NCBI GenBank assembly: GCA_016191955.1
Contig: JACPVC010000006.1
Span: 7,920 to 71,919, forward strand
Origin: Chloroflexota bacterium
GTDB taxonomy: Bacteria > Chloroflexota > Anaerolineae > Anaerolineales > Villigracilaceae
Reading direction: 5' to 3'
Length of the DNA stretch: 64,000 nt
Below the pieces are notes generated by a model. That model did not search any database, had not been told where the DNA came from, and saw only the letters and a program-made list of their open reading frames with translations. Positions 3,150 to 55,235 of this stretch are shown here, piece by piece. Numbering within the stretch: the first letter of the stretch is position 1; the number at the start of each line of letters is the position of its first letter. The translations under genes and the position numbers were made by a program.

Positions 3150-6100
3150 ATGAAACCCTCCATCCTCCTCCGCACCAAATTCCTCGTCCCGCGCCCACGC
3201 CCCGAGTTTTTGCCACGCCCGCGCTTGATTCAATGGCTTGATTCCACAGCGGATAAACGCCTGACCTTGCTTTCCGCCCCGGCTGGATACGGCAAAACGA
3301 CCCTGCTTGCCGACTTTATCAACGCCTCTTCCCTACCCTTTGCCTGGTACACCCTCGACGCGCAAGACTCCGACCCGACAGTTTTTCTCACCTACTTGAT
3401 CGAATCCCTCAGGAGCATGAAACGCGCTCCCGAGTCTCTCACACGCGCCATCGGTCAGACCGCTCAATCCCTGCTCGACAGCGCCGAAGCGACCCTATCC
3501 CCCCAGCGCGTGTTGACCGTGCTGGTCAACGAACTCGCCGAACAGATCGAAGCTCCCTGGCTGATCGTGCTGGAAGATTATCATTACGTCACCAGCCCCG
3601 TCGTCCATCAACTGGTGGACTTCCTGCTCGAAAACACCCCCGAAAGTTTACGGCTCATCATCTCCACCCGCATGGACCCTCCGCTCGCGTTGGCTCGTCT
3701 GCGGGCACGCGGTCAACTGGCGGAACTGCGAGCTTCGTCCCTGCGCTTTCGCGAAGAAGAAGTATCGAATTGGATGCAAGCCAGCCTGCCCGATATATCC
3801 AGCGAGAACCTCAACTTGTTAAGCGAAAAGACTGAAGGCTGGGTGGCGGCGTTGCAAATTATCCGTTCGTCGTTGAGCGGCCGCGACGCGCAGGATGTCA
3901 ACGCCATGCTGGCGGGCTTGAGCGGTTCCCAGCAATTCGTCTTCGACTACCTGGCAGAAGAAGTCTTCAAACGCCTGCCCGACGACCTGCAAGGATTTTT
4001 GTTACGCACCTCCATCCTTAACCAAATGGACGCATCCGCTTGCAATGCGGTGGCGGGTGTGAAGAACGCCCAGTCTATTTTGGAAGAGTTGGAGAAGCAG
4101 AACCTGTTCCTCTCCAGTTTGGATTCACAGAGACGCTGGTATCGCTATCATTATCTTTTCCGCGAATTCCTCGTCAGCCGCCTCGGGCGCGTCGAAACGG
4201 AATCAGTTGTCGGCGTAGAAAGAAGCGCGGGCGCGTACTACGAGTCGCAAGGCGAGTTGGAAGCGGCGCTGTCCCATTATCTCAAAGCGCAAGATTTTGA
4301 CTCCGCCGCGCGAGTCATCTCCATCTTCGCCGCCGATTACGTCGAGCGCGGGCGCGTGGAAGTTTTGCACCGTTACCTGAGCGCCCTGCCCGCCGATGTG
4401 ATGAAAGCCAACCCCGAATTATTTTTGCAGCACGGCAACACCCATTGGCGGCTGGGGCAAACCGGCGCGGCAATTGCGGCATTCGAAGATGCGCGTTCAT
4501 CGTTTGCTGCGCAAAAAAATTCAAACGGGGTCTGCCGCGCTCTCACGCGCCTTGCCGAAGTCAACCGCGCGCAGGGCAACTACCGCCAGGCGGAGACGTT
4601 ATCCACCGAAGCGTTATCTTTTGCAGATGAAAACCACGCCGCCCGCGCCGAAGCCTTGATGTCGCTGGCGAAGAGTGTGGGTTTTCTGACAGGCATGGAT
4701 AAGGGACGTCAACTCGCGGAAGAAGCTGTGGATGAAGCGCGGCTGGCGGTGGCGCACATCAGCGCATTGGCGCGCGCGAACTTTTTGCAATCGCTTGGGC
4801 AAATCTGCTGGTGGCACGGCGACCCGCAAGCCACCGTGCGCTATTGTCAGGAAGCCCTGCAAATCGCGCCCGAAGAATTTTCACCCATCGGCGCGCAGGC
4901 ATATATTTCGTTAGTCACGCCGTACTTGTATTGGCGCGAGTTCGATAAGGCGCTGCAATATGCCGAGCGCGGATTGCAAATCGCGCAGACGCTACATTTA
5001 AAAGAATTACTCCCAAGCGCATACACGGCGTTGGGCAATGCGCTTACACGGTTGGGCGAAACGGCGCGCGCCGAAGCCAGTTTGCGTCAGGGCATGGAAA
5101 TCGGTCAACAGTTGGGCTTGGCTTCGTATGAGCAATTGATGGCAACGGGTTATCTCGCTTACAACCTGTGCGGACAGGGTCGCGTGGAAGAAGCCCGTCA
5201 ACTTGCGGAAGGCGCATTGTGGTCATACACCGGAAGCGCCGATACCTATGAAGCCTATGTTTGCCGAAGCGTGCTGGCAGACGTGGCGTTGGAAAACCGT
5301 CAGCTCGACAAAGCCGAACGGTTATTCGGTGAATTGATCGAAGTCGGTGAACGCCGGCAATTCCGCATTCCACTGGCGATGGTCTATTTTGGTCTGGCAT
5401 ACATCCACCTCGAAACCAAACGCGCCGAAAGCGGCTTGGACTATGCCCGCAAGGCGCTGCGTTTGATCGAAGCCTCGCGCACATTCCAACTCTTTCTCGA
5501 TCAGGGCGTGCGCTCGCAAGTGGTGAGCGAGGCCTTGATCCGCGCGGGGGAGAAGAGTCCCTTCCTTGAACGCGTCTTGGAAAATCTTCCCGAAAAGCCG
5601 GTTCAAGTTTCGTTGCAAGACCGGTATTCGATTCAGGTCCGATGCTTTGGGAATTTCCGCGTGCTGTTAAATGGAAATGAAGTTTCGCAGGAGCGCTGGG
5701 TCTCAGCCAAGGCGCGCGACCTGCTCGCATATTTCGTCACCATGCGTGGCGAGAAGATGCCAGCCGATAAAGCCTTCGATGCGATCTGGGGCGAAAAGGA
5801 ACGGACGAGCCGCACTGCCTTTCACACCGCTCTCTCCCGCCTCCGCAACGCGCTCAAGGCTGGGGACGACAGCCCAAGATTTATCCTCGTCGAAGTCGGC
5901 GAATACTGGCTGGACTCCGCCCGCTTCAGTATCGATGTGGATGAGTTCAACACTGCCATGGCAAAAGCACGCTCCGCGACAAATACCGAGTCTGCTGCAG
6001 AGTGGTACGAACAAGCCGTGTCGTTGGTTCAGGGCGAATATTTACAGAACTTGTATTACGAATGGGTTTTCCCCGAACGGCGCAGACTGGCGCAAACCTA

Positions 6101-42621: not shown

Positions 42622-43116
42622 TCAGAATATCTTACTTGAAATTATCTCCCGCACAATTTCACTCAACGGCATGGATATATCCATGGTAAGTGAATTCGTT
42701 GGTTCTTCGAGCGCGTCGAATTGACTCTTCAACATGTATGGCTTCATGTAATGTTCCGTCCGCTTTTCCATTCGCGACGAGATCAATTCGTAACTGCCTT
42801 TGAGGTAGACGATTTGCACGCCCTCGTTTCCATCCATGAGTTGTTGACGATAACGTTCTTTGAGAGCAGAGCAAGCCAGCACACCGGGGCGATCCGCTTT
42901 CAGCGAAGATGAAATCAACTCGTGCAGGGCAGCCAGCCACGGGGCGCGGTCAGAATCGTCAAGCGGAACCCCGTTTTCCATTTTGGCAACATTTGCAGAC
43001 GGATGAAAATCATCGGCGTCGTAAAAATCCCATCCCAGGGAATCCGCGAGAGATTTTCCCACGCTAGTCTTGCCGCATCCAGAGACTCCCATCACGATAA
43101 AGAAACGAACCTTCAT
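42622..43116 (-). CDS. gntK: Gluconokinase (GntK/IdnK type)
   Basis: MGVSGCGKT, DADDFHP, PLDDSDRAPWL, LACSALKERYR, LKSQFDALEEP. Confidence 0.92.
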   Translation of the reverse strand: MKVRFFIVMGVSGCGKTSVGKSLADSLGWDFYDADDFHPSANVAKMENGVPLDDSDRAPWLAALHELISSSLKADRPGVLACSALKERYRQQLMDGNEGVQIVYLKGSYELISSRMEKRTEHYMKPYMLKSQFDALEEPTNSLTMDISMPLSEIVREIISSKIF

Positions 43117-44372
43117 GTCTTCAACCGATATAAGATCTCGCCCGCTTTGGGCACAAATAAAATCCCATCTTCCTCACGATCCTTCCATTCATCCGCATTG
43201 ACCTTTGAGGGGTCGAGATAGCCAAGATTAAGTCTTGCACAATCCTCTGCTGAGATTTTACTCGCCAGCGTCACACGCACGTTCGGTTTTTCGATTCCGT
43301 TTTGCATCACGCCTGAGCCGCGTAAATGCGTGCTGTGAGCCAGCACACCGAGCGGAATATTTTTGAATCGCTCCCACTGATTTAAAAAATACGGCAGGAT
43401 GTGATAACCCACCTCGTAAATATATTTTCCATGCACATGACTTACCACATCCAAATGCGGCGCATAAATCACGACCTCTCCACCGAGCGCCACCGCAGGC
43501 TCCAGTTTATACATCGCCTTCGCGCCCGTCCATAGTTCATCGTACATGGGAGGAGCTACAGATAGGACTCGCTTAAATGGTTTCTCACACCAGCGGATGT
43601 GACGTTGCGCAGATAGCTCCGCCGCCTCATTCCAAGCCGACAAATGGTCGCCAACGAATAGCCCACTCAAGCCTTTGCCTTCCACCACCAATGCAATCAG
43701 CGTGAGCGGTGTCTTCAGTCTCTCTGCTGCCGCATGGATCATCGCGCGCACGGGCGTATCTTTAATGCCAATTGTCCCAACAACACCAGCTAGAGCTCCA
43801 AGCCAATGCGTAGCATTGATCATCTCCGCGCCAGAGATGCCAGGGAAGAGATATTTTGCGCCGCCCGAAAACCCAACCACTTCATGCGGGAACGTCGGTC
43901 CCAGAATCAGGATGTGGTCATATTCCAACGCCGCCTTGTTGATGCGGATGTCCACTTCGTTGGGTAAAGATGAATGCCAATTATTTCCTGCGATTTGTTT
44001 AATTTCATCTTGCTCAATCACCCCAAGCGAAATTAACGCAGACGGTGTGTCCCACGCATGATTCAGTAAACCGACATGTTTGAATGTTGTTGTTCGTTCT
44101 TCTTTTGTAACGCCAACCAGCTTATTGAGACTCTCTTCGCTCAATGGCGGATGGGTTCCCAATGCAACCATGAAATCAAGTTGTTTCGTGTCATGCAGCG
44201 CATCCACAAGCGAACGGAATAAAAATGGCAACGGTAATGAGCGTGTGTGGTCAGGGATCAAAACCAGTATACGTTTGTTTTTAAATTGACCATCAAGTAC
44301 GCCAAGGGTTTTGCGTATTTCATCGTCCGTAAGGAGTTGTCCAGGTGAGGCTATTGCTTGAGTCTGAATCAT
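43113..44372 (-). CDS. LarA-family nickel-pincer racemase/epimerase (candidate D-gluconate/D-mannonate 2-epimerase)
   Basis: PDHTR, ALGTH, HEVVGFSGGAKYLFPG motifs; overlaps the gntK start. Confidence 0.85.
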   Translation of the reverse strand: MIQTQAIASPGQLLTDDEIRKTLGVLDGQFKNKRILVLIPDHTRSLPLPFLFRSLVDALHDTKQLDFMVALGTHPPLSEESLNKLVGVTKEERTTTFKHVGLLNHAWDTPSALISLGVIEQDEIKQIAGNNWHSSLPNEVDIRINKAALEYDHILILGPTFPHEVVGFSGGAKYLFPGISGAEMINATHWLGALAGVVGTIGIKDTPVRAMIHAAAERLKTPLTLIALVVEGKGLSGLFVGDHLSAWNEAAELSAQRHIRWCEKPFKRVLSVAPPMYDELWTGAKAMYKLEPAVALGGEVVIYAPHLDVVSHVHGKYIYEVGYHILPYFLNQWERFKNIPLGVLAHSTHLRGSGVMQNGIEKPNVRVTLASKISAEDCARLNLGYLDPSKVNADEWKDREEDGILFVPKAGEILYRLKT

Positions 44373-44506
44373 CCGTTATCCGTTTCCAAATCCGTTTGTA
44401 AAATCCGTGTATCCGTTAAATATCCGTTGAAATCATCCGTTTATCCGCTTGGCGAAGCCATCCGTTGACCACATCCGTGCATTCGTTTTGCGAAGCCATC
44501 CGTTGA
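44371..44506. repeat. Irregular tandem array of about 12 ATCCGT(T) units
   Basis: All units co-oriented with variable short spacers; GCGAAGCCATCCGTTGA occurs twice; fills the uxuB-larA gap. Confidence 0.8.
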
Positions 44507-45349
44507 TTACACACCGCTGAATGCCGAGAACCCACCGTCAATTGGAATCACCGCTCCCGTCACAAAAGCGGATGCGGGGGAGATCAGCCACATCGTCGCA
44601 CCGAGCAGGTCATCGGGAGTCCCGAAGCGGTTCATTGGGGTGTGAGTCAAAATGGATCGACCTCTCGAAGACAATTCGCCAGCGTCCTTATCCGTAAGCA
44701 GGAATCGATTCTGTTCTGTCAAGAAAAACCCAGGCGCAATCGCATTGACCCGGATGTGCGGTGAATAGTTCTGCGCCATGTGGACAGCCAACCATTGCGT
44801 GAAGTTACTGACTGCCGCCTTGGCAGCCGAATACGCAGGGATGCGCGTGAGCGGACGAAAGGCATTCATCGAAGAGACATTGAGGATCAGTCCCTCGCCG
44901 CGTTCTGCCATGCCACGCCCAAATACCTGACACGGTAGAATCGTGCCGAGTAGATTCAAATCACCAACGTAATGAAGCGCATCGAGCGGCAGATCGAAGA
45001 AGGAGAGATCAGGCTTCGTTGTCGCAGAAGGATGATTGCCTCCCGCTGCGTTGACGAGAATATCCACACTGCCAAATTGTGCGCGGATGATATCGTGCGC
45101 CTGTTGCAGCGATTCGGAATCCAACACATCCCCTTTGACGTAAATCACCTTGCCTTTGTTCTTTATTTCGTTGTTGATCTCTGAAACTGATTTTTCCCCA
45201 CGCTCTGCATTGCGACTCAAAATCGCCACGTTCGCATTGCACTCCATAAGTATACGGGCAATACCGACTCCAAGAACACCCGCGCCGCCAGTTATTAAAA
45301 CCGTGCGATCTGTAAAATCATAAAACGACAGAAACTCTTCTCGATCCAT
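44507..45349 (-). CDS. uxuB: D-mannonate oxidoreductase (fructuronate reductase), SDR type
   Basis: TGGAGVLG, NAAGGNHPSATT, RPLTRIPAYSAAK, NAIAPGFFLTEQNR, DGGFSAFSGV; adjacent to uxaE. Confidence 0.85.
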   Translation of the reverse strand: MDREEFLSFYDFTDRTVLITGGAGVLGVGIARILMECNANVAILSRNAERGEKSVSEINNEIKNKGKVIYVKGDVLDSESLQQAHDIIRAQFGSVDILVNAAGGNHPSATTKPDLSFFDLPLDALHYVGDLNLLGTILPCQVFGRGMAERGEGLILNVSSMNAFRPLTRIPAYSAAKAAVSNFTQWLAVHMAQNYSPHIRVNAIAPGFFLTEQNRFLLTDKDAGELSSRGRSILTHTPMNRFGTPDDLLGATMWLISPASAFVTGAVIPIDGGFSAFSGV

Positions 45350-45350
45350 G

Positions 45351-46517
45351 TTATGGCTTGAGCAAACTCAGGTGCTTTTCGAAATGTGTTCGCAAACCTT
45401 CGTAATAGGCGGTTTCGTGTTTTAACAGCGCCGCTTTCAATTCCGCGCCGAACTTTCCAAGCGCAGACCCAAACGTCACATGCAAAACTTCACGCGCGTG
45501 GAAATCTTCCAACAACGAAGGCAGGTCATTGGTTTGTGGTAACTTGCTCAACTCCGCTGAAACGTGATAGGTCTTTTTGTCGTTTTCATAGTGTTTACGT
45601 CCGAGCGAGTAAATTTTCAAAAATAAATCAGGCTCATGTTTCGCCAGCACGCGCAGCGCTTCGAGATAACTCGTCCCCGCCGTCTTCACATGAATCCGTT
45701 CGCCCCAATGTTTCGCCACCAACGGATAGACGCTGAATTTATCAGAACCCGAATGCAAACTCAACTTATATGTCCCGAAATGTGCGGTCACTGCGGCATG
45801 TTTTGACAACTCGATATCGAGTGCATTCAAATCACCAATGTAATCCACGCCCTTTTCAAAGCGACCAATAAAGCGCGGTGCAAGCGATGTGAACTTCACG
45901 CCCTTGCGCGTCAACTCATTGGTGATGAAGAAATGTTCGAGCGGGGCGGTGGGGGAGTCAGTTTCGTCCACGGAGACTTCAAAATCGAATGCCTCTTTCA
46001 AATCGGATAAACGCTTGAACATCGTAACTGCATGTCCGATGGCTTTGCTATACTTGACCGCCGCCCGCATCAACGACTCCGCCTCGAACCGCCCCCAAGT
46101 CTGATCCCCATCCCCCGACAGATACAACGCTGCCAGTTCATCCCAATTAAGACTTGCAATCTTTTGCTTCAACATTTCGAGAGAGTCTGTATCCGCTCCA
46201 TTGTCCACATGTTCACCGGGGTCAACCGTGAAGAAGGTATACCCTGCTTGAATGAACGGCGGGATGTCATCCACCGTCTTCAAGTGATCGGCATCTGCTC
46301 CCCAAGCGGAATCCCATTTCGAGGCTTCGACGGCGCGTTTGGCATCGTCCATTACCTGTTGCGGGGTGCGTCCCGTCCGCGCGTTCTCACGGACGGATTG
46401 CTGTGCAAAGAGCGGCGCGAACTTTGTGCCTTTGACCGCGGCAATGTGACCAGGCGTGGCTAAACCAAGACGATCACCGAAGCCGAAAGAAGAAGCAAGT
46501 GAGAGTGATGTCAGCAT
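45351..46517 (-). CDS. uxaE: Tagaturonate/fructuronate epimerase
   Basis: SFGFGDRLGLATPGH, AQQSVRE, GADADHLK, FEVSVDET, LAPRFIGRFEKGVDY, LSLHSGSDKF, HVKTAGTSYLEALR, LHVTFGS. Confidence 0.9.
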   Translation of the reverse strand: MLTSLSLASSFGFGDRLGLATPGHIAAVKGTKFAPLFAQQSVRENARTGRTPQQVMDDAKRAVEASKWDSAWGADADHLKTVDDIPPFIQAGYTFFTVDPGEHVDNGADTDSLEMLKQKIASLNWDELAALYLSGDGDQTWGRFEAESLMRAAVKYSKAIGHAVTMFKRLSDLKEAFDFEVSVDETDSPTAPLEHFFITNELTRKGVKFTSLAPRFIGRFEKGVDYIGDLNALDIELSKHAAVTAHFGTYKLSLHSGSDKFSVYPLVAKHWGERIHVKTAGTSYLEALRVLAKHEPDLFLKIYSLGRKHYENDKKTYHVSAELSKLPQTNDLPSLLEDFHAREVLHVTFGSALGKFGAELKAALLKHETAYYEGLRTHFEKHLSLLKP

Positions 46518-46573
46518 AAGGAGTTCCAAATTTTCGTTTCATTCAATCTGAACGTTGAGGTACAGAACATCAA

Positions 46574-47038
46574 CTATTTCGCAGGCGCTTGGAGCAATTC
46601 CAGCGTGATGCCATCGGGGTCAAGGAAGTAAATGGTGTAGCCGCCTTTGTTGATGCCCGCTTCAATGGCAATCGGTTTGTCCGCTTTGAACTGGACGCCC
46701 AATTCCTTGAGCCGCTTGAACTCCACATGAATATCGTCCACCATGAAAGCCCAGTGACCTACGCCGGTGCGGTTGGTATCGAGCGGAATGTCTTCGCCGC
46801 GCGGATTAATATATTCCACCAATTCAATGTGATGGCGCGATATGGGTATCGTTTGCCCCGGCACGCGCAGTTGGGCTACTTTAAGATGCGCGTCTTTATA
46901 CGCCACCAGTTTGTCGGTGTATTCATTCTTCTGAACCTGGTCGCGTACAAATTCCAAGCCTAATACTTCGGTGTACCATTTCACCGACGCTTCGATATTG
47001 CTTACTGTAAACGAGACATGCCAGAATCCTTGTATCAT
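46574..47038 (-). CDS. VOC/glyoxalase-family metalloprotein
   Basis: WHVSFTV, IELVEY, GHWAFMVDD, FLDPDGITLEL. Confidence 0.88.
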   Translation of the reverse strand: MIQGFWHVSFTVSNIEASVKWYTEVLGLEFVRDQVQKNEYTDKLVAYKDAHLKVAQLRVPGQTIPISRHHIELVEYINPRGEDIPLDTNRTGVGHWAFMVDDIHVEFKRLKELGVQFKADKPIAIEAGINKGGYTIYFLDPDGITLELLQAPAK

Positions 47039-48213
47039 GTGAGAACCTCTCGTACCTGCTTTTCCATGAGCAGCAGGGTCTCTTTGGCGGTATGTTTTCC
47101 GGTCATGGCTTCCTGCACGCCAGCCCAGAGAATATCCTCGATCAACGGGTATTTTGCGAACTTCGGCGGCACCATGGCATATTGTGTAACCGTTTCTTCC
47201 AGAACAGCCATCCTTTTCGCATCGCGCCCGGATTGAGTTTTCTTTATCTTTTCAAAAATACTTTGCCGCACGGGGGTATGTCCGCCTGCGCTGGCTTCGA
47301 ACCATTGCACTTCAGGGCTGGTGAGGTATTTCGCCAGCGCCAAGCCGCCTTCGGGGTTGCGCGCGGCTTTGGGAATGGCAAAGGAATGTCCGCCAGCGTA
47401 GGATTTGCGAATCCCTGCCGGACCCGCAGGATAAACCGCCACATCGAATTGATCGTACACAGCGCAGGTTTCCCGTTTTTGATACAGCCCATAAAAGCCC
47501 GGGAAGTCACCCACCATCAACACATCCCCATCGCGGAAACGCCCGGAGATTTCATCGTAATACCAGTTCTCGATCAAATCTAGCGGGGTAACGTGCTCCA
47601 CCGAATGCAAGCGATGCAGAAAGTTCAACGCCCATTCACCGGCTTCGCTGTTGAAGATCGGGTTGAGTTCAACGTCAAACAAATCGCCGCCTGCCATACC
47701 AAGCAATTCGTAAAAGGTACCAAACAAGCCGGAATGCCGCCCAGGGAAGGCAAAGCCATAAAAGCCTTCGCGTCTGTATGTAGCCATTTGCAGGGCGGCT
47801 TCATCCCATGTTTGCGGGGCGTTGATCAGATCGGCGCGGTAAAAAAGTATTCGGGCGTCAAAGTTTCGGGGAAGCTGCATCAGCCTCTCCTGAGTCGGAT
47901 GCGTTCCTGTGGCAAAGCGGCATAACTCCATCACGCGCGGCACAAAGTCGCTTAATTCGTTCGCATCCACAAGTTCATCCAACGGGCGCAAATGTTCCGC
48001 CTGAGACGGGCAATACTTGGTGTGCGTGGAGATCATGTCATAACGACCGTTCTCCGTCCCAAGGTCTTTTGCCATGCGCTCGTTCAATTCAACGTGCGGC
48101 AGGCGCACATCCACGATGAGGCGATAGCCCGTTTGTTTTTCAAAAGCAGGAAGCATTTCGAGAAGACCGTCATATTGCGGTCCGCTGATGAGCGCGAGAT
48201 GTAATTCCTTCAT
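47035..48213 (-). CDS. Family-1 solute-binding-fold protein lacking a signal peptide
   Basis: LPRNFDARILFYRADL, PQTWDE, YAGGHSFAIPK. The ATG overlaps the upstream TAA (TAATG), so no N-terminal extension is possible. Confidence 0.8.
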   Translation of the reverse strand: MKELHLALISGPQYDGLLEMLPAFEKQTGYRLIVDVRLPHVELNERMAKDLGTENGRYDMISTHTKYCPSQAEHLRPLDELVDANELSDFVPRVMELCRFATGTHPTQERLMQLPRNFDARILFYRADLINAPQTWDEAALQMATYRREGFYGFAFPGRHSGLFGTFYELLGMAGGDLFDVELNPIFNSEAGEWALNFLHRLHSVEHVTPLDLIENWYYDEISGRFRDGDVLMVGDFPGFYGLYQKRETCAVYDQFDVAVYPAGPAGIRKSYAGGHSFAIPKAARNPEGGLALAKYLTSPEVQWFEASAGGHTPVRQSIFEKIKKTQSGRDAKRMAVLEETVTQYAMVPPKFAKYPLIEDILWAGVQEAMTGKHTAKETLLLMEKQVREVLT

Positions 48214-49184
48214 TAGAACATCGCCTCCACTGCATTCACAATGTCCGCGGTCTGCGGCAGGACTGAATCTTCGAGTGACTCTGCCATCGGAATTGGGACG
48301 TGTTTCGCTCCCAAGCGACGGGGCGGCATAATCAACGAATCTGGGGCTTGTTCATATACCCGGGCAATGATCTCCGCGCCCAAGCCGCAATTGTTGTGGG
48401 CTTCATGCACAACGAGTAGGCGCCCGGTCCCCTTTATCGATTCGAGAATCGTGGGCATATCCAGCGGTTCGATGGTTCTCAAATCAATCACCTCGGCTTC
48501 GATGCCTTTTTGCGCGAGGGTTTCTGCGGCTTCTAATGCAAATAACAAAGTACGGGAATAAGAGACAATCGTAATATCTCGCCCGTCGCGCTTGATCTCT
48601 GCCTTGCCGATCGGAATGGAATAATCCCCTTCGGGCACATCGCCTTTGGTGTTGTAAAGAAGTTTATGCTCGATGAAGATGACGGGATTTCCTGTACGCA
48701 TACTGCTCTTTAGCAAACCCTTTGCATCAGCAGGCGTGGAAGGCGCGACGACGATCAGCCCCGGCACCTGGGCAAACCAGGTCTCAAAAGATTGCGAATG
48801 TTGCGCGCCGTTGCCGCGTCCGCCGCCTTGTTGCGCGCGCACCACCATCGGGATGGACACCGTGCCGCCCGACATGTATCGCAGTTTCGCAGCTTGATTC
48901 ACGATCTGGTCGGCGGCGACCAATGCGAAATCCATGAATAATAATTCGACCACGGGGCGCATCCCAACCATCGCCGCGCCAATGCCCAAGCCCACAAAAC
49001 TGGATTCGCTGATGGGCGTATCGCGCACGCGGTCTACGCCGAATTCATCGATCAAGTCTTTCGTCACGCGAAAGATACCGCCATGATGACCGATATCCTC
49101 GCCCATCAAAAAGATGCGCGGGTCAACTTTCATTTCTTCACGAAGGGCTTCGTTCAAAGCCTGTACATACGTTATGTTTGGCAT
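48213..49184 (-). CDS. 2-oxoacid/acetoin dehydrogenase E1 beta subunit
   Basis: [42 protein letters not shown]. Confidence 0.93.
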
Positions 49185-49198
49185 GATTCATTCACCTA

Positions 49199-50155
49199 TC
49201 AAATAAATACATCTGTCAACGCATCGGCGGGCGGTGGGGCGGGGCTGGTTTCGGCAAATTCCAGCGCATCGGCAATCACGGCTTCAGCTTCTGCATCCAG
49301 ACGAGTCAAATCTGCATCACTACACCCAAGTTCAAGCAGGCGTTTGCCACAACGCACGATTGGTTCATTCTCTTTCGCCTTTGCCACTTCTTCTTTCGTG
49401 CGATAAATTTCAGGATCGCCCATCATGTGACCCCACAGCCGATACGTCATCGCTTCGATGTAAAACGGACCACCTCCCGCCCGTGCCTTGGCTGCCACTG
49501 TTTCGACGGTGTTATACACCGCCTCGACATCGTTCCCGTCAATTTGAACAGCCTTAAAGCCGAAGCCTTCTGCGCGTTTATAAGTCTCCACTACCGAGGT
49601 GGTTTCGTGCGAGGGCGACATTTCCGAATACAGATTGTTTTCACATACAAGGATGAGCGGTAATTTCCAAATGACGGCAAGGTTCAGGCTTTCAAGGAAT
49701 ACACCCTGGTTGACCGCCCCTTCTCCAAAATACGCGATGGCAACATTGTCCTTCTTTTGTAATCGCGAGGCGAGTGCCGCCCCTGCCGCGTGAGGGACTC
49801 CGCCTGCCACAATCGCATTGGCTCCCAGCAACCCAACCGAAGGGTCGGTAAAGTGCATCGAACCGCCTTTGCCTTTGGAGCAACCTGCTGCCTTGCCCAG
49901 CATTTCCGCCATCGCCGCGCGGACGCTTAATCCCTTCGCAATCGCCTGACCATGCCCGCGATAGGTGCATGTCAGATAATCATCCTGTCGCAGCGCCCAA
50001 CAGCCGCCCACGGCGGTCGCTTCCTGCCCGACACAGGGATGGAACGATCCGCGAATCTTTCCCTGCTGATACAAACTACGAATGGCTTCTTCGAATTTTC
50101 GGATTACAAGCATCTGCCGATAGGCATCTTGCAATCGTTCAGGTGTCAAAGGCAT
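49199..50155 (-). CDS. 2-oxoacid/acetoin dehydrogenase E1 alpha subunit
   Basis: GQEA, TYRGHG, GKGGSMH; TPP motif GEGA..CENN; TYRLWGH. Confidence 0.93.
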   Translation of the reverse strand: MPLTPERLQDAYRQMLVIRKFEEAIRSLYQQGKIRGSFHPCVGQEATAVGGCWALRQDDYLTCTYRGHGQAIAKGLSVRAAMAEMLGKAAGCSKGKGGSMHFTDPSVGLLGANAIVAGGVPHAAGAALASRLQKKDNVAIAYFGEGAVNQGVFLESLNLAVIWKLPLILVCENNLYSEMSPSHETTSVVETYKRAEGFGFKAVQIDGNDVEAVYNTVETVAAKARAGGGPFYIEAMTYRLWGHMMGDPEIYRTKEEVAKAKENEPIVRCGKRLLELGCSDADLTRLDAEAEAVIADALEFAETSPAPPPADALTDVFI

Positions 50156-50306
50156 GTAACCATCTCCTAATTCAATAAATAATGTTGCGCAGTGCGCCGC
50201 ATATCATCCCTTGTGGGACCGAACGGGTCAGAGTAATCAGTAAACCGGCGAATCTACTCGTAAGACTCGTCTGTTTCTGGCTGGTGCGACGCACCCTCCT
50301 TATAGT

Positions 50307-51401
50307 CTATGCTGTGATCTCCAACGGATTCACACTGCGCCCTTCATTCATCGAACGATAGGCGGCTTCCACAACCCGCAAGGTGCCGAGGTTGTCTCTT
50401 GCAGACGTAACAGGCTCACTGCCGGTTTGAATCGCTTCCATTAGAGAAGCCATGGGTCCGTAAAAGGCATCCGGTATCCATTTGCCTGGCAGGGTGGCTG
50501 AAAAATTTTGTTCCAAATGTTCCCGGCTGGTAAAGGTCAATGTGTCATTGCGTCCATCGGGGTAATCGTAGTTTGTGCCAATCGTCCCTTCGATCACGCC
50601 GTCTGTGCCGAGGACGCGGAAATTCGAATAAAGCGCGGGAGACCAATCGTAGTGGCAGATGGCGATCAGAATTTGCATCCCATTTGAATATTCCCAAGTG
50701 GTTATTGTTTTTGTCTCTCCCTTTGCTTTCTGCGCTGGATTCTTTGCATGGCGGCTCGTAACCAGTGCAGGCTCGCCGAAGAGATAACGCAGAGAGTCAA
50801 GATAATGAATGGAATGGAACATGACTTCAAGACGCGGCTGATTTGCGATCCAGGGCCACATGTCCCAGGGGGTGTGAATGCTCACTTGAACCTGCGCATC
50901 GAGAATGTCGCCCAGCCAGCCTTCATTCATGAGAGCGCGTGCGGCTTGAATGATGGAACTCCAACGAAATTGCTGTTGGACCGCCATCTTCAACCCGGCT
51001 TGCTGAGCAAGATTTGTCATCTCCACCGCTTGCGCATAATTCGTGGAAAAAGGTTTCTGGCAAAGCAATGGCTTTCCCGCAGCAATCACCGTTCTGGCAA
51101 TATTCCATTGATCTTCCGGCAGAACGGCAATATCCACGATCTCAACCGCAGGGTCAGCCAGTATTTCATCGAGCGACTTGAATACTTTTTTCATGTCGTG
51201 AGTTTGAACCGTTTTTTCAGCCGTTTCCTGATTGATGTCGTACCCACCAATTAGATTGAAGCCACTTGCTCGGTAGGAGGGGATGTGGCCATAATTCACG
51301 ATCCCGCCACAGCCGACGAAAGCGATGCCATAATCTGTTTTCGGGGGCAGTTTCCGCGTCAATGCTTTTTGAATAAACAGAGGGATTGAGTCACTTGTCA
51401 T
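50307..51401 (-). CDS. Gfo/Idh/MocA-family oxidoreductase
   Basis: FVGCGGIV, LCQKPFS, HSIHYLDSLRYLFG. Confidence 0.9.
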   Translation of the reverse strand: MTSDSIPLFIQKALTRKLPPKTDYGIAFVGCGGIVNYGHIPSYRASGFNLIGGYDINQETAEKTVQTHDMKKVFKSLDEILADPAVEIVDIAVLPEDQWNIARTVIAAGKPLLCQKPFSTNYAQAVEMTNLAQQAGLKMAVQQQFRWSSIIQAARALMNEGWLGDILDAQVQVSIHTPWDMWPWIANQPRLEVMFHSIHYLDSLRYLFGEPALVTSRHAKNPAQKAKGETKTITTWEYSNGMQILIAICHYDWSPALYSNFRVLGTDGVIEGTIGTNYDYPDGRNDTLTFTSREHLEQNFSATLPGKWIPDAFYGPMASLMEAIQTGSEPVTSARDNLGTLRVVEAAYRSMNEGRSVNPLEITA

Positions 51402-51405
51402 GTGA

Positions 51406-52434
51406 TTAACCCTTGACCGCGCCGATCAACAACCCGCGGGTGATATAACGTTCCAGAATGATGGCGATCACGATCACGGGAACGATCATGATCAAGATCA
51501 ATACGGACATGTTCCACCATTGCGGTCCGCGTGTGGCGTTTTGCGCGGCAATGGTCAGCGGCAATGTTTGCACCTTGGCACTGGAGAGGAACAAAGCCAG
51601 CAGATATTCATTCCAGGTAAAGACCAGGACAAATAAAAAGGTGGCAACCAGCCCCGGTACTGCAAGCGGTAGCACAATGGACCAGAAGATACGATATCGC
51701 GAAGCGCCATCAATCGAGGCGCATTCCTCCAACTCAATGGGAATGTTGCTGATGTAATCGCGCATCAACCAGATGACGATAGGCAGGTTGCTGGCGACAT
51801 AGGTGATGATCAATGCCGTGTAGGTGTCGAGCAGGTGCAATTGCTGAAAGATGAGATAGATCGGAATGACCACTGCGATGGGCGGGAGCATACGCTGTGA
51901 GATCATCCAAAAGGCGATGTCGTTGTTCCCAAGCGCGCGTTTGAAACGGCGTCCAATGGTTTGCAGGAGAATAAAGAATAAAACAAAGGAAACGACAAGT
52001 GCAATCTGCCATGTTAGACCTGCCGAGACCAACAGGATGCTTAAGATGACACAGCCGATAAAGGTTAATATTGCCCCCACCCGCGGACGATATTCAAAAC
52101 GAACCAGCGCATAGGCTGCAGTTGCGCCGAAGATCAAAGCCAGCAAGGCGCTGATGGGCGCGACGATGGCGGTGTTTGTGAAATTTCGGATGGTATCCTT
52201 GCTGAGATCTCCCACCAGAATATATTTCCAGGCATCCAGGGTGGGTTTGAAATCCACAAATGGGATGTAAAAGGGACCTTCATTGACCTGGCCAGAATTT
52301 TTGAACGAGGTGACTATCAGCCAGTACAGCGGAAACAGGATCAAAACCGCCCAGAACCCCAATACCAAATAAGAGAGGATCGCACCCACCGGCGAGGGGG
52401 TATTGATCGATTTGCTTTGAAACCAACGCTTCAT
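51406..52434 (-). CDS. Carbohydrate ABC permease (MalG-like) with extra TM insert
   Basis: IPIELEECASIDGASR, FVFTWNEYL-type motif. Confidence 0.9.
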   Translation of the reverse strand: MKRWFQSKSINTPSPVGAILSYLVLGFWAVLILFPLYWLIVTSFKNSGQVNEGPFYIPFVDFKPTLDAWKYILVGDLSKDTIRNFTNTAIVAPISALLALIFGATAAYALVRFEYRPRVGAILTFIGCVILSILLVSAGLTWQIALVVSFVLFFILLQTIGRRFKRALGNNDIAFWMISQRMLPPIAVVIPIYLIFQQLHLLDTYTALIITYVASNLPIVIWLMRDYISNIPIELEECASIDGASRYRIFWSIVLPLAVPGLVATFLFVLVFTWNEYLLALFLSSAKVQTLPLTIAAQNATRGPQWWNMSVLILIMIVPVIVIAIILERYITRGLLIGAVKG

Positions 52435-52464
52435 AAATTCTGCTCCGATACCGATAGGGGTTTG

Positions 52465-53601
52465 CTAAAGTGTTTCCACGGTTTGTTGACGAATCAAATT
52501 AACAAAGATCATGCTGAAAAATGTCACCAAGAATAGCAGCATGTAAGCCACTGCCGCCGATGCGCCCAGGTCGAGGGCGCGCCAGTTGATATAGGCATGG
52601 TAGGTGAGTGATTGAGTGGCTGTTCCCGGACCGCCATTGGTCATCACGTTGGGCAGGTCTACGATTTTGAAGGCTTCGATCAGGCGGATCAAGATCAGGG
52701 TCATGCTGACGGGAATAATCGAGGGCCAGGTGATGTGTCGAAAAATCTGCCAGGAATTAGCTCCGTCTACGGTGGCGGCTTCGATGGGTTCGGTTGGCTG
52801 GCTTTCCAATGCGGCGACCAGCACGATGAACATAAATGGCGTCCATTGCCAGATATCGCCGATCAGAATGGCGGTTCGTGCGCTCCAGGGGTTATTCACC
52901 CATGAAAAATCGGTTAGCCCAAACGCCTGCCAGATCGGAGTGAATGGTCCCTTACTGGTGTCGGTCAACATCCGAAACATATATGCGACTCCCACCGGTG
53001 TAATCATCATGGGCAGAAGGAAAATGACACGGAAGAAACGCCGCCCGGGCAGGTTTTGCACGGTGAGAAGCGCCAACCCCAATCCCAAAATGTATTGAAA
53101 AAAGATGCCTACAAAAACATAAACGAGGGTGATGCTTGCTGTCCCCAATCGGCCGCCGTTCCATAAGGTGTGAACCAGCATCCAGGATGACAGCCCCAGC
53201 CCAAGGGTTAGCATGAGGCGCCCGATGAGTCCGCCAATGGAAATTCTGGCGTTCAAAAAATATCGAGCCAGAAAAATAGCCAGCGCAATGACGATCAAAC
53301 CAAACACGGTCCAGGTTAGCGGGGTGTTGGGAGCGAATTCTCCCAGGAAGTGTGTTCCTTCGGAACCGGTGAATAAATCTTTGTAATTTTTTAGCCCAAC
53401 AAATGTGAGCTTGAAACCTCCCAGGGCAATATCGAATTTTGTCAGCGATACATACAGGGAGGCGATCAATGGGAAGATGGACAGGAATAAAAGAGCCAGG
53501 ACGGTGGGCAATAAAAATATGGTTCCTACCAGCCGATCGGCGGTGCCTGAAATAATGGTATGAAGGCGTGCGGGTTGAGTCTCGTCGTTTCTCGTGTCCA
53601 T
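52465..53601 (-). CDS. Carbohydrate ABC permease (MalF-like)
   Basis: WQWTPFMF, EAATVDGANSWQIFRHIT, TNGGPGTAT. Confidence 0.9.
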   Translation of the reverse strand: MDTRNDETQPARLHTIISGTADRLVGTIFLLPTVLALLFLSIFPLIASLYVSLTKFDIALGGFKLTFVGLKNYKDLFTGSEGTHFLGEFAPNTPLTWTVFGLIVIALAIFLARYFLNARISIGGLIGRLMLTLGLGLSSWMLVHTLWNGGRLGTASITLVYVFVGIFFQYILGLGLALLTVQNLPGRRFFRVIFLLPMMITPVGVAYMFRMLTDTSKGPFTPIWQAFGLTDFSWVNNPWSARTAILIGDIWQWTPFMFIVLVAALESQPTEPIEAATVDGANSWQIFRHITWPSIIPVSMTLILIRLIEAFKIVDLPNVMTNGGPGTATQSLTYHAYINWRALDLGASAAVAYMLLFLVTFFSMIFVNLIRQQTVETL

Positions 53602-53622
53602 GAATAGTCATCCAGTAGAAGG

Positions 53623-53657
53623 CTCAATGCCCAACCCAATTTGAATTGGGCATTGAG
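53623..53657 (-). terminator. Stem-loop between the binding-protein and permease genes
   Basis: 12-bp stem CTCAATGCCCAA / TTGGGCATTGAG. Confidence 0.45.
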
Positions 53658-53684
53658 TGTTTGGGTTCAACTTATACGATGGGG

Positions 53685-55235
53685 TTACTTTTGTCCAAGG
53701 GTACCCTTGTAGAAGGTAAGTTGCGCTTCACGGTCGGCTTCCTCTGTGATCGCTTCCCAGGAGTCGTATAGCTGTTGCGCGGCTTCGTCGGTGGTGAGGT
53801 TTCCAGCGATATATTCGGCAAGGATGCGGTCAAGTTCTACCTGAATATATTCGTGGTTCTTGGGAATACGCAGATCGGCAGCCATGTTGGGACTGTTCAA
53901 GCTCTGTTCGATGCCGCTCAAGTATTGTTCGGCAGCAACCTGGCTAAAGCCTGCGTCGACCCAAGCCTGCTTGTTCTCGAATTGGGAAATACGGAAGGGG
54001 TTGTAACCGGTTTTCCCAACGACCACATCTGCATTGGATTGTGCAGGTTGAGCCATGTAAGAGAAGAAGGCGTAGGTGGCATCTTTCTGCTTTTGATCCA
54101 CAGCCGCGTTGACTGCGCCAGCCCAACCGCCGAAAGAGGCGAAGGGGGCATGATTCACGCCGTCAACTGCGTAGGGGCAGGTTGTGGCGTCACAGGCGAC
54201 GAGTTTACCGGTCTCCCAATCGAGAACTTCGGTTGAACCCGGATTCTGGATTGCGCCTGTCTTGTCCACCACCTTTGAGTTTTCGGCATCAATGGCGAGC
54301 GGACCAATATCGCCCCAGTCCATGGTGAGGGCACAGCGACCGGAGAGGAACAAACCGCGAGAATCGCCTACGCCCTGGTTGGTTTCATCGGGGGGACCAT
54401 ACAGACCTGTTTCCTTGTACACTTCCAAGGCGCGTTTGAAGGCTTCATTGTTGACAAGTGGGGTCATATCCTTGGTGTTGAAGAACGGTCCCTGGTTGCT
54501 GCCCTGGCTTTGAATATAGGGCGCCGCAATGGACCAAATCCACCAATACGATTGCTGACCGGGAGCCTTGGAGATACAGGAACCGTAATCGCCTTCGCCG
54601 TCACCATTCAGGTCTTTGCCGTGCAGAGCCTTCGCTACTGCCAAATAGTCATCCCATGTTTTGGGAGGTTCGAGACCCGCTTCTTCCAGAGAGTCGATGC
54701 GATAATAGACCATGTGCATATCGCCATCGAGCGGAATGCTGTAGACCTTGCCACCGTAGGAGTTGAAGTCGCGGAAGAATGGTGCAACATCGTCCCACTC
54801 CAAAGCCGCATCTTTCTCGACATAGGGAGTCAGGTCTTCGATCAAACCAGCGGGGGCAAAGTCCACAATCCAGCTTGGCGCAAAGAGATAACCATCATAG
54901 GAGTTTGTACCGGAAACGGCGTCGGTCAACACCTTTTGATATAACTCACTATTGGGGACGGTAATGATGTTGACCGTGGCTCCCGTAAGGGCGGTGAAAT
55001 CGGGTCCGCGGCGCTGGAGCGGTTCGGCAACTTGAGGACCTACAAAGGTGAGAATGTCAATGGTCACTCCTTCGTACATCTTGTCTGCGGTTTCAGTTGC
55101 AGGGGCCTCGGTTGCCTCAGGAGCATCTGTCGCAGCTTCGGGCGCTGTGGTTGCGGGTGTTCCGCAGGATGCCATGAGTACGCTGGAGACGATCATTAAA
55201 CTTAATAGTTTCAATAGCACGTTCTTGCTTTTCAT
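53685..55235 (-). CDS. Carbohydrate ABC substrate-binding lipoprotein (family 1)
   Basis: Lipobox MASC; PEAATDA linker; PLDGDMHMVYYR, PPKTWDDY, APFASFGGW; SD AAGGAGAG. Confidence 0.92.
   Translation of the reverse strand: MKSKNVLLKLLSLMIVSSVLMASCGTPATTAPEAATDAPEATEAPATETADKMYEGVTIDILTFVGPQVAEPLQRRGPDFTALTGATVNIITVPNSELYQKVLTDAVSGTNSYDGYLFAPSWIVDFAPAGLIEDLTPYVEKDAALEWDDVAPFFRDFNSYGGKVYSIPLDGDMHMVYYRIDSLEEAGLEPPKTWDDYLAVAKALHGKDLNGDGEGDYGSCISKAPGQQSYWWIWSIAAPYIQSQGSNQGPFFNTKDMTPLVNNEAFKRALEVYKETGLYGPPDETNQGVGDSRGLFLSGRCALTMDWGDIGPLAIDAENSKVVDKTGAIQNPGSTEVLDWETGKLVACDATTCPYAVDGVNHAPFASFGGWAGAVNAAVDQKQKDATYAFFSYMAQPAQSNADVVVGKTGYNPFRISQFENKQAWVDAGFSQVAAEQYLSGIEQSLNSPNMAADLRIPKNHEYIQVELDRILAEYIAGNLTTDEAAQQLYDSWEAITEEADREAQLTFYKGTLGQK

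Follow-up and report, generated by a model that had tools for sequence, protein, structure and literature searches.

A GntE-type LarA homolog in Anaerolineales genomes without detectable larB, larE, and larC genes

Introduction

How can an enzyme of the nickel-pincer nucleotide (NPN) type be retained in bacteria in which no genes for the synthesis of its cofactor can be found? The question is raised by a hexonate locus of a Chloroflexota bacterium (Anaerolineales; Villigracilaceae), located in a stretch of 64,000 nucleotides from the contig JACPVC010000006.1 (positions 7,920 to 71,919), here called the window. The locus consists of four adjacent open reading frames (ORFs) in one direction on the minus strand (window positions 42622-46529), which encode a tagaturonate/fructuronate epimerase (UxaE), an oxidoreductase of the short-chain dehydrogenase/reductase (SDR) type, a LarA homolog similar to the hexonate epimerase GntE, and a gluconokinase (GntK). 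To our knowledge, the enzymes encoded by larB, larE, and larC represent the only route to NPN, and matches to these genes are missing from the genome that holds the window and from many of its relatives that carry the LarA homolog. The reading that we favor, with a probability of roughly 55%, is that the module is a Thermotoga-type branch of hexuronate catabolism in which the apo-enzyme would be charged with NPN, or with a late precursor of it, that is not made by the known pathway inside the cell. What is new is the cofactor gap, which is order-wide and well supported, whereas the pathway itself is already known.

Classification of the LarA homolog

The LarA homolog contains the domain that defines the LarA superfamily, as the match to Pfam Lar_N (PF09861) scored 74.7 bits against a cut-off of 23.3. 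Its best match in PDB is 4NAR (E-value 4.8e-58, 200 bits, residues 10-418), which is the GntE2 enzyme (LarAH20) of Thermotoga maritima that interconverts D-mannonate and D-gluconate in vitro when NPN is given (PMC7583248). The lactate racemases in PDB scored only 35-40 bits and the malate racemase 20 bits. The first-pass annotation of the locus, which was made from the DNA sequence alone, had listed a clustering with lactate racemases as evidence that would speak against an epimerase of this type, and the difference between 200 bits and 35-40 bits shows that the protein does not cluster in this manner. The best NCBIfam model was NF052594 (group 18, “putative hexonate epimerase”), with 169.4 bits against a cut-off of 500, while the MAR and LarA models scored 94 and 72 bits, respectively, and no equivalog cut-off was reached in the NCBIfam search. 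The matches to PDB and to the family models settle the fold and the subgroup, and since no equivalog was reached, the protein represents a GntE-like but separate, uncurated subgroup, the substrate of which is read from the gene context and a few signature residues.

The residues were mapped with the help of HMMER alignments to 5HUQ and 4NAR. D41, T43, R44, H74, H163, S169-G171, K173, and H189 correspond to D72, T74, R75, H108, H174, S180-G182, K184, and H200 in LarA from Lactiplantibacillus plantarum (LarA_Lp), and K285 corresponds to the catalytic Lys298 of LarA_Lp, as mapped by hand from the 4NAR alignment and section 7 of PMC7583248. Groups 18-20 of the family have a signature that consists of an E-[V/S] loop after the second catalytic histidine, a tryptophan in helix 11, and small residues that face the substrate (PMC7583248). 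In the window protein, the loop E164-V165 is placed directly after the catalytic H163 (E155-S156 in GntE2), and the tryptophan corresponds to W281. Small residues are located immediately before the catalytic lysine (A284 before K285; G286-K287 in GntE2) and at the helix-14 position G342 (N348 in GntE2), both mapped by hand. H163-E164-V165, W281, and the catalytic K285 are invariant across 53 homologs from Anaerolineales.

By fold, residues, and gene context, the LarA homolog is placed with the GntE-type enzymes as a putative D-mannonate/D-gluconate 2-epimerase. It resembles GntE2/LarAH20 from T. maritima and GntE1/LarAH19 from Corynebacterium glutamicum in its full-length similarity, in the NPN-binding and catalytic residues, and at the specificity positions. 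These two tested enzymes act on free D-mannonate and require NPN (PMC7583248). However, the window protein belongs to a distinct subgroup and occurs in genomes without the cofactor pathway. With LarA of the LarA-LarB-LarC-LarE system in L. plantarum, it shares the fold family and the equivalents of Asp72, Arg75, His108, His174, Lys184, and His200, but the match is only 35 bits, the substrate class is another one, and the partnership with LarB, LarE, and LarC is missing.

Absence of larB, larE, and larC

The genome that holds the window (G000) is a metagenome-assembled genome (MAG) of 4.34 Mb in 370 contigs, with a completeness of 92.7% and a contamination of 4.5%. The window is part of its largest contig (75 kb), the GC content of which matches that of the genome, and contains the only LarA-family gene in G000. 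Searches of G000 with hidden Markov models gave no match to the LarB model NF033503 or to the LarC model TIGR00299, and the LarE model TIGR00268 recognized only PP-loop motifs in ORFs of 519 and 623 amino acids. Hidden or fragmentary copies of the three genes were rejected, since the best hit in a tblastn search of G000 with LarB, LarE, and LarC from a related Anaerolineales genome was a PP-loop match with an E-value of 0.011. A lack of PurE in G000 was also considered, as the LarB model, by which PurE is picked up in every control, remained silent, but this idea was dropped because of a weak PurE-like match on contig C102.

Among five well-assembled carriers of the LarA homolog, one contained a larB-larE-larC cluster and four did not, and the closed chromosome OY969578.1 (3.2 Mb) gave no match to LarB, LarE, or LarC. 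A wider survey covered a fixed set of 201 genomes from Anaerolineales, each with a completeness of at least 90%. LarB and LarE occur together in 45 of them, neither being found without the other, and LarC was detected in 50. The GntE-type gene was identified in 53 genomes of this sample; LarBCE is complete in 23 of these, represented by LarC alone or by a fragment in two, and not found at all in the other 28. The latter group includes G019, a closed genome that consists of a single 2.57-Mb contig with 99% completeness; in all, two carriers without LarBCE are closed genomes, one of them from outside the 201-genome sample. Counting any LarA-family gene, 86 of the 201 genomes are carriers, with a full LarBCE set in 34, a partial set in 4, and none in 48. 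No LarB, LarE, or LarC was found in any of the 23 genomes from the family to which the window belongs, and eight of the ten closest LarA homologs come from genomes without LarBCE. Where they are present, the LarBCE matches score 280-490 bits and are located on large chromosomal contigs, which makes it unlikely that the genes have been hidden by divergence or by a plasmid location. As a control, a sample of 301 genomes from the phylum contained 136 LarA-bearing genomes outside the order, and LarC was present in 124 of these and missing from 12. Three unpublished genomes (G229, G351, and G443), each with both LarA and LarC, are counted here; if they are excluded, the proportion without LarC is 12 of 133. 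Thus, the LarA-LarBCE partnership holds in the rest of Chloroflexota.

Two genomes from the same genus delimit the difference to a single segment. In G105 (locus L192, C74:3033-6556), larC (3246-4367), larE (4527-5297), and larB (5420-6040) are located between conserved flanks, while in its congener G056 (locus L195, C12:282425-282590), the same flanks are 165 bp apart inside a 369-kb contig, with no match to LarB, LarE, or LarC between them. The two congeners differ by the genuine presence or absence of a 3.5-kb larC-larE-larB cassette, and NPN biosynthesis thus behaves as an accessory cassette within this genus.

Selection on the LarA homolog

In the alignment of the 53 sequences, D41, T43, R44, H74, H163, S169-G170-G171, K173, and H189 are invariant in 23 of 23 sequences from genomes with LarBCE and in 30 of 30 sequences from genomes without it. 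The dN/dS ratios, estimated with the Nei-Gojobori method, were 0.06-0.22 for pairs from genomes that lack LarBCE and 0.10-0.20 for pairs from genomes that have it, or about 0.1 in either class. The former include pairs with dS values above 1 inside one family (f7), in which LarB and LarE were found in none of 24 genomes and LarC in a single non-carrier. The LarA homologs of G056 and G105, which have both been kept, differ by a dN of 0.034, with a dN/dS ratio of 0.054. In a quick maximum-likelihood tree inferred with IQ-TREE, from which two incomplete rows (L136 and L142) were left out, genomes with and without LarBCE are interspersed, and the well-supported branches force at least seven changes in LarBCE status. 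The window protein clusters in a clade of 11 rows with 97% support, 10 of which come from genomes without LarBCE. Only one pseudogene copy (G091) was observed among the sampled genes. As judged from these rates and residues, the gene is held by selection, and precisely so at the cofactor-binding positions, over long periods in lineages without LarBCE.

The first-pass annotation had stated that the scheme needs larBCE elsewhere in the genome and that their absence would contradict it. The search was run, and the genes were found neither in G000 nor in about half of the carrier relatives. The absence is hence borne out, but since the enzyme is constrained and its residues are intact, it is not right to conclude that the scheme is refuted.

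Possible sources of the cofactor

The conservation of all residues for NPN binding and for proton-coupled hydride transfer suggests that NPN is most likely still the working cofactor of the enzyme. Had the cofactor been exchanged, the constraint on the nickel ligand or on the lysine tether would be expected to be lost in one or more of the several independent lineages, but both residues are kept in all of them, which argues for a continued use of NPN. Moreover, the replacement of three enzymes fits poorly with the repeated changes in LarBCE status among close relatives, and the acquisition of NPN is therefore favored. The cofactor would then be of external origin, the most likely source being other members of the community, such that the bacteria would be cofactor auxotrophs. 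LarBCE has been reported from about a quarter of prokaryotic genomes (PMC11796402). In a broader version of this reading, which we put forward tentatively and at somewhat less than even odds, NPN is a shared or scavenged cofactor, and many Anaerolineales, G000 among them (48 of the 86 LarA-bearing genomes), keep working apo-enzymes, have lost larBCE, and depend on their neighbors, which would imply undescribed systems for uptake and loading.

Several points weigh against the favored reading of the module and its cofactor. We know of no uptake system for NPN, and free NPN has been described as labile (PMC11796402). When the ORFs surrounding the LarA-family genes were clustered (53 loci of the GntE type and 42 canonical loci), no transporter or other gene emerged that is specifically linked to the LarA homologs in genomes without LarBCE. 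The LarA homolog scores far too low for the NCBIfam equivalog (169 bits, with a cut-off of 500). The uronate isomerase UxaC, which would provide the substrate that the scheme assumes, was not found in G000, G001, G019, or G115. Finally, G000 is a MAG of 370 contigs that is 92.7% complete, and a 3-kb cluster may have been missed in this one genome.

The alternative that NPN, or a close analogue, is made in the cell by a route non-homologous to LarB, LarE, and LarC would account for the conservation and constraint of the enzyme in lineages without any LarBCE, as well as for the lack of the three genes in closed genomes, and weak matches of PP-loop ATPases to the LarE model were obtained in G000 and in five other genomes searched. 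However, such matches occur equally in G004, which has LarBCE, and are probably housekeeping enzymes of the NadE or GuaA type. Substitutes would be needed for each of three unrelated enzymes, no conserved neighbor specific to one of the two classes was found, and the at least seven status changes together with the single cassette indel in one genus fit better with the repeated loss of a dispensable function, for which reasons we consider such a route unlikely. We are also doubtful, if anything a little more so, that the LarA homolog has become NPN-independent in these lineages, by using another cofactor or metal or by taking on a different role. Such a change would be in line with a gene under selection in 28 of 53 carriers in which no NPN genes were found and with a divergent subgroup that reaches none of the NCBIfam equivalog cut-offs, but it is difficult to reconcile with the finding that the 30 sequences from genomes without LarBCE, just like the 23 from genomes with it, show no variation at K173 (which tethers NPN), H189 (which binds the nickel), R44, S169-G171, or the two catalytic histidines. 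Nearly identical proteins are found in both classes (G056 and G105, dN 0.034), the at least seven independent transitions were accompanied by zero changes at cofactor and catalytic sites, and the only GntE enzymes that have been tested biochemically need NPN (PMC7583248).

Could the three genes simply be present in the organism but fall into assembly gaps or remain unbinned? The number of contigs and the estimates of completeness (92.7%) and contamination (4.5%) allow for it, and because the genes are usually clustered, one gap could hide them all. We nevertheless regard this as very improbable, since none of the 23 genomes from the same family has any of the genes, eight of the ten closest LarA homologs come from genomes without LarBCE, no fragment was found by tblastn, and LarBCE is otherwise located on large chromosomal rather than plasmid-like contigs. 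True absence also occurs in the order, as seen in the closed genomes and in the clean syntenic deletion, and considering its family and its nearest relatives in the LarA-homolog tree, an assembly gap in G000 alone is unlikely. A different kind of alternative concerns the order of the reactions, in that the kinase would phosphorylate mannonate and the LarA homolog would then epimerize 6-phosphomannonate to 6-phosphogluconate. This is the order in Lactobacillus suebicus, where mannonate is phosphorylated first and 6-phosphomannonate is then epimerized, and where a homolog of the T. maritima gntE is abundant in the proteome of cells grown on galacturonate (PMC6978723). Since three unrelated kinase families are found in the kinase slot, the specificity of the kinase is not fixed by homology. 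On the other hand, free D-mannonate is a substrate of the GntE enzymes from both T. maritima and C. glutamicum (PMC7583248), and the window kinase passes the gluconokinase family model TIGR01313, suggesting that the reversed order is improbable here.

An external supply of NPN or a late precursor thus remains the reading that we prefer. In many genomes across the order, a constrained enzyme of the NPN type is not matched by any known means of NPN synthesis, a discrepancy that is documented by closed genomes and by a syntenic deletion as well. Provided that the enzymes are active, there would be either a second biosynthetic route or a traffic of NPN between microbes; in the latter case, NPN would be a new “public-good” cofactor taken up by an as yet undescribed importer. 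For the annotation of metagenomes, the larBCE content is no basis for concluding that a genome has no NPN enzymes or that a LarA-family gene is inactive. In the papers on LarA and NPN that were consulted, LarA homologs are treated as dependent on LarB, LarE, and LarC, and the imbalance that is described is that of LarBCE without LarA (about 15%), not the reverse (PMC11796402). We found no report of LarA homologs in genomes without LarBCE in these papers, although an earlier mention is possible, as Desguin et al. 2014 and Rodionova et al. 2012 were not covered.

The hexonate module and its predicted pathway

The module contains the following features:

42622..43116, minus strand: gntK, a small P-loop gluconokinase of the GntK/IdnK type, 164 amino acids (TIGR01313, 166.4 bits against a cut-off of 113.75; Pfam SKI/AAA_33)
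43113..44372, minus strand: GntE-type LarA homolog, a putative NPN-dependent D-mannonate/D-gluconate 2-epimerase, 419 amino acids (PDB 4NAR; Pfam Lar_N)
44371..44503, minus strand: spacer with an ACGGAT(G) array between the SDR gene and the LarA homolog (sequence)
44507..45349, minus strand: SDR-type D-mannonate oxidoreductase/fructuronate reductase (uxuB; named uxaD in T. maritima), 280 amino acids (NF006132, 362 bits against a cut-off of 281)
45351..46529, minus strand: short-form uxaE, tagaturonate/fructuronate epimerase (PF16257, 430 bits; PDB 9lhu, E-value 4.3e-101)

The uxaE gene starts either with TTG at 46529 (392 amino acids) or with ATG at 46517 (388 amino acids). It is separated from the SDR gene by 1 nt, the SDR gene and the LarA homolog are separated by a 134-nt spacer, and the start of gntK overlaps the stop of the LarA homolog by 4 nt. 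The ORF coordinates confirm the earlier description of four contiguous, co-oriented genes, and the family models and PDB matches agree with their previous identification as uxaE, uxuB, a LarA-type gene, and gntK. The SDR protein passed NF006132 and stayed below the cut-offs of the gluconate 5-dehydrogenase models, and the gntK product passed TIGR01313 and did not reach the equivalog models of the Escherichia coli type. UxaE matches only positions 81-475 of the PF16257 profile and residues 111-505 of the 9lhu chain (6il9, E-value 1.7e-83). It lacks the N-terminal ca. 100 residues of the solved UxaE proteins and thus does not have the full-length architecture; a longer N-terminus is impossible because the upstream VOC gene ends at 46574.

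In the predicted pathway, UxaE would interconvert tagaturonate and fructuronate, and the SDR protein would reduce fructuronate to D-mannonate. The GntE-type LarA homolog would invert C2 to convert D-mannonate into D-gluconate, GntK would phosphorylate gluconate to 6-phosphogluconate, and a short-form 6-phosphogluconate dehydrogenase (6PGD) encoded elsewhere in the genome could pass the product into the pentose-phosphate pathway. The first-pass annotation had proposed the same logic for the four window enzymes, and the gene identities support it. We infer the substrate, the direction of the flux, and the NPN dependence of the window enzyme from sequence data.

The genome content was used to constrain the entry and the exit of the pathway. 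Searches for UxuA in G000 and four other carriers gave no match. The 2-keto-3-deoxy-6-phosphogluconate (KDPG) aldolase Eda was not found in G000, and the Edd model gave only an IlvD-like match far below the cut-off in this genome. A match to 6PGD was obtained in all five genomes examined, and the short 6PGD-like gene of G000 is located on contig C238. Since neither UxuA nor the KDPG aldolase was found, no exit for mannonate other than the module is visible in G000, and with a 6PGD-like gene present but no Eda or Edd, the module leads to the pentose-phosphate route. An Entner-Doudoroff exit was rejected, as the aldolase was not found and the Edd match is IlvD-like and below the cut-off. Of the two exits that had been suggested previously, only the pentose-phosphate pathway is hence supported. 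UxaC was not found in G000, in G115, or in the closed genomes G001 and G019. The earlier observation that the window lacks uxuA, eda, and uxaC thus holds across the whole G000 assembly (kdgK, a PfkB-family kinase, was not searched for). The genome search for uxuA and gnd that had been recommended returned a short 6PGD-like gene and no UxuA. The term “complete bypass” is too strong for this organism, as UxaC was not found.

In T. maritima, the genes aldH-pelB-gnd-uxaR-uxaE-uxaD-gntE-gntK form an operon in the UxaR regulon that is induced by pectin (PMC3750489). The entry of mannonate into the pentose-phosphate pathway via GntE was proposed by Rodionova et al. 2012, as cited in two later papers (PMC7583248, PMC6978723). 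The window contains the same four functions in the same order as uxaE-uxaD-gntE-gntK, with the same link to gnd and the pentose-phosphate pathway, and the bypass is therefore an already known pathway; taken by itself, the cluster extends it from Thermotoga to Anaerolineales. The two systems also differ. T. maritima has LarB, LarC, and LarE, all three of which were matched by the models when it was used as a control genome, as well as uxaC and uxuA, none of which was found in G000. The window has a small P-loop kinase of the GntK/IdnK type, while the T. maritima gntK product is presumably of the FGGY type. Furthermore, the window has a short UxaE, and VOC, substrate-binding protein (SBP)-like, E1, and Gfo genes are located upstream in place of the pectin genes. 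The pathway in L. suebicus is similar in that mannonate is converted into 6-phosphogluconate rather than dehydrated, in a redox-neutral route to ribulose-5-phosphate, but there the kinase acts before the epimerase, and the epimerase gene was not identified (PMC6978723).

Distribution of the module in Anaerolineales

The LarA homolog was detected in 129 stretches of the species-level genome collection, with 67-90% sequence identity. Clustering of the neighbors in the 53 loci, with annotation of cluster representatives, identified UxaC in 20, UxaE in 19, an SDR protein in 39, and Gnd in 25 loci, in addition to a kinase and a LacI regulator. The SDR gene adjoins the LarA homolog in its 39 loci, which belong to both LarBCE classes, and a full-length gnd gene is located directly downstream of the LarA homolog in G001 and G168. 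The kinase slot beside the LarA homolog or gnd (L094-L145) is occupied by members of three unrelated families, namely the GntK/IdnK P-loop kinases, PfkB, and FGGY, which apparently reflects non-orthologous displacement of the hexonate kinase at a step where phosphorylation is required. None of six other sampled genomes from the genus of the window (g1) contains the LarA homolog, and its nearest relatives are found in other genera and families, with 84% identity within the same family and 78% identity to family f7. This pattern suggests that the module has spread laterally within Anaerolineales.

Flanking genes and the ACGGAT(G) arrays

Upstream of uxaE, the same strand continues unbroken (46574-55235, minus strand) with tightly packed genes for a VOC protein, a protein with an SBP fold and no signal peptide, the E1 beta and E1 alpha subunits, a Gfo/Idh/MocA oxidoreductase, and ABC permeases. 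The E1 alpha and beta subunits represent a thiamine pyrophosphate enzyme without an E2 component. The linkage of this unassigned VOC/SBP/E1/Gfo set to the module is shared by G000 with only two close relatives (L015 and L018), and these genes may supply the keto-uronate that is otherwise made by UxaC. Beyond gntK, the genes are located on the plus strand and are unrelated to the module.

The spacer at 44371-44503 contains 10 copies of the motif ACGGAT(G), the last of which includes the ATG start codon of the LarA homolog. Only four such arrays are present in the 4.34 Mb of G000 (the window array and C223:3180-3355, C274:16-193, and C288:5631-5875), where the background density of the motif is 0.24 per kb per strand. 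The arrays consist of 7-24 copies with an irregular spacing of 7-20 nt, on the coding strand and directly upstream of start codons. They look like the GGA arrays of the CsrB type. However, a function as a CsrA site or as a known RNA was rejected, since no CsrA gene was found in G000 and the array had no match in Rfam. The same array precedes the LarA homolog in one relative, L027 (2077-2168).

Other genes near LarA-family loci

Two groups of neighboring genes were considered as class-specific candidates for an NPN importer or maturase and rejected. An apparent ABC pair beside LarA is confined to a single genus (g21), and a larger cluster of neighbors turned out to consist of aldehyde:ferredoxin oxidoreductases rather than transporters. 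One or two genes for such oxidoreductases are located beside the canonical LarA gene in 8 of 22 loci from genomes without LarBCE and in 2 of 20 loci from genomes with LarBCE, counts in which related genomes are not independent. Canonical loci from genomes without LarBCE (L172-L177, L184, L189, and L190) sometimes also contain genes for a class-III aminotransferase and a sodium:solute symporter. The closed genome G019 (L150:6093-7358 and L151:15112-16347), in which no LarB, LarC, or LarE was found, has three LarA-family genes, one of the GntE type and two canonical copies, and one of the canonical copies follows genes for an FAD-linked oxidase, a DAO-type dehydrogenase, and an FGGY kinase.

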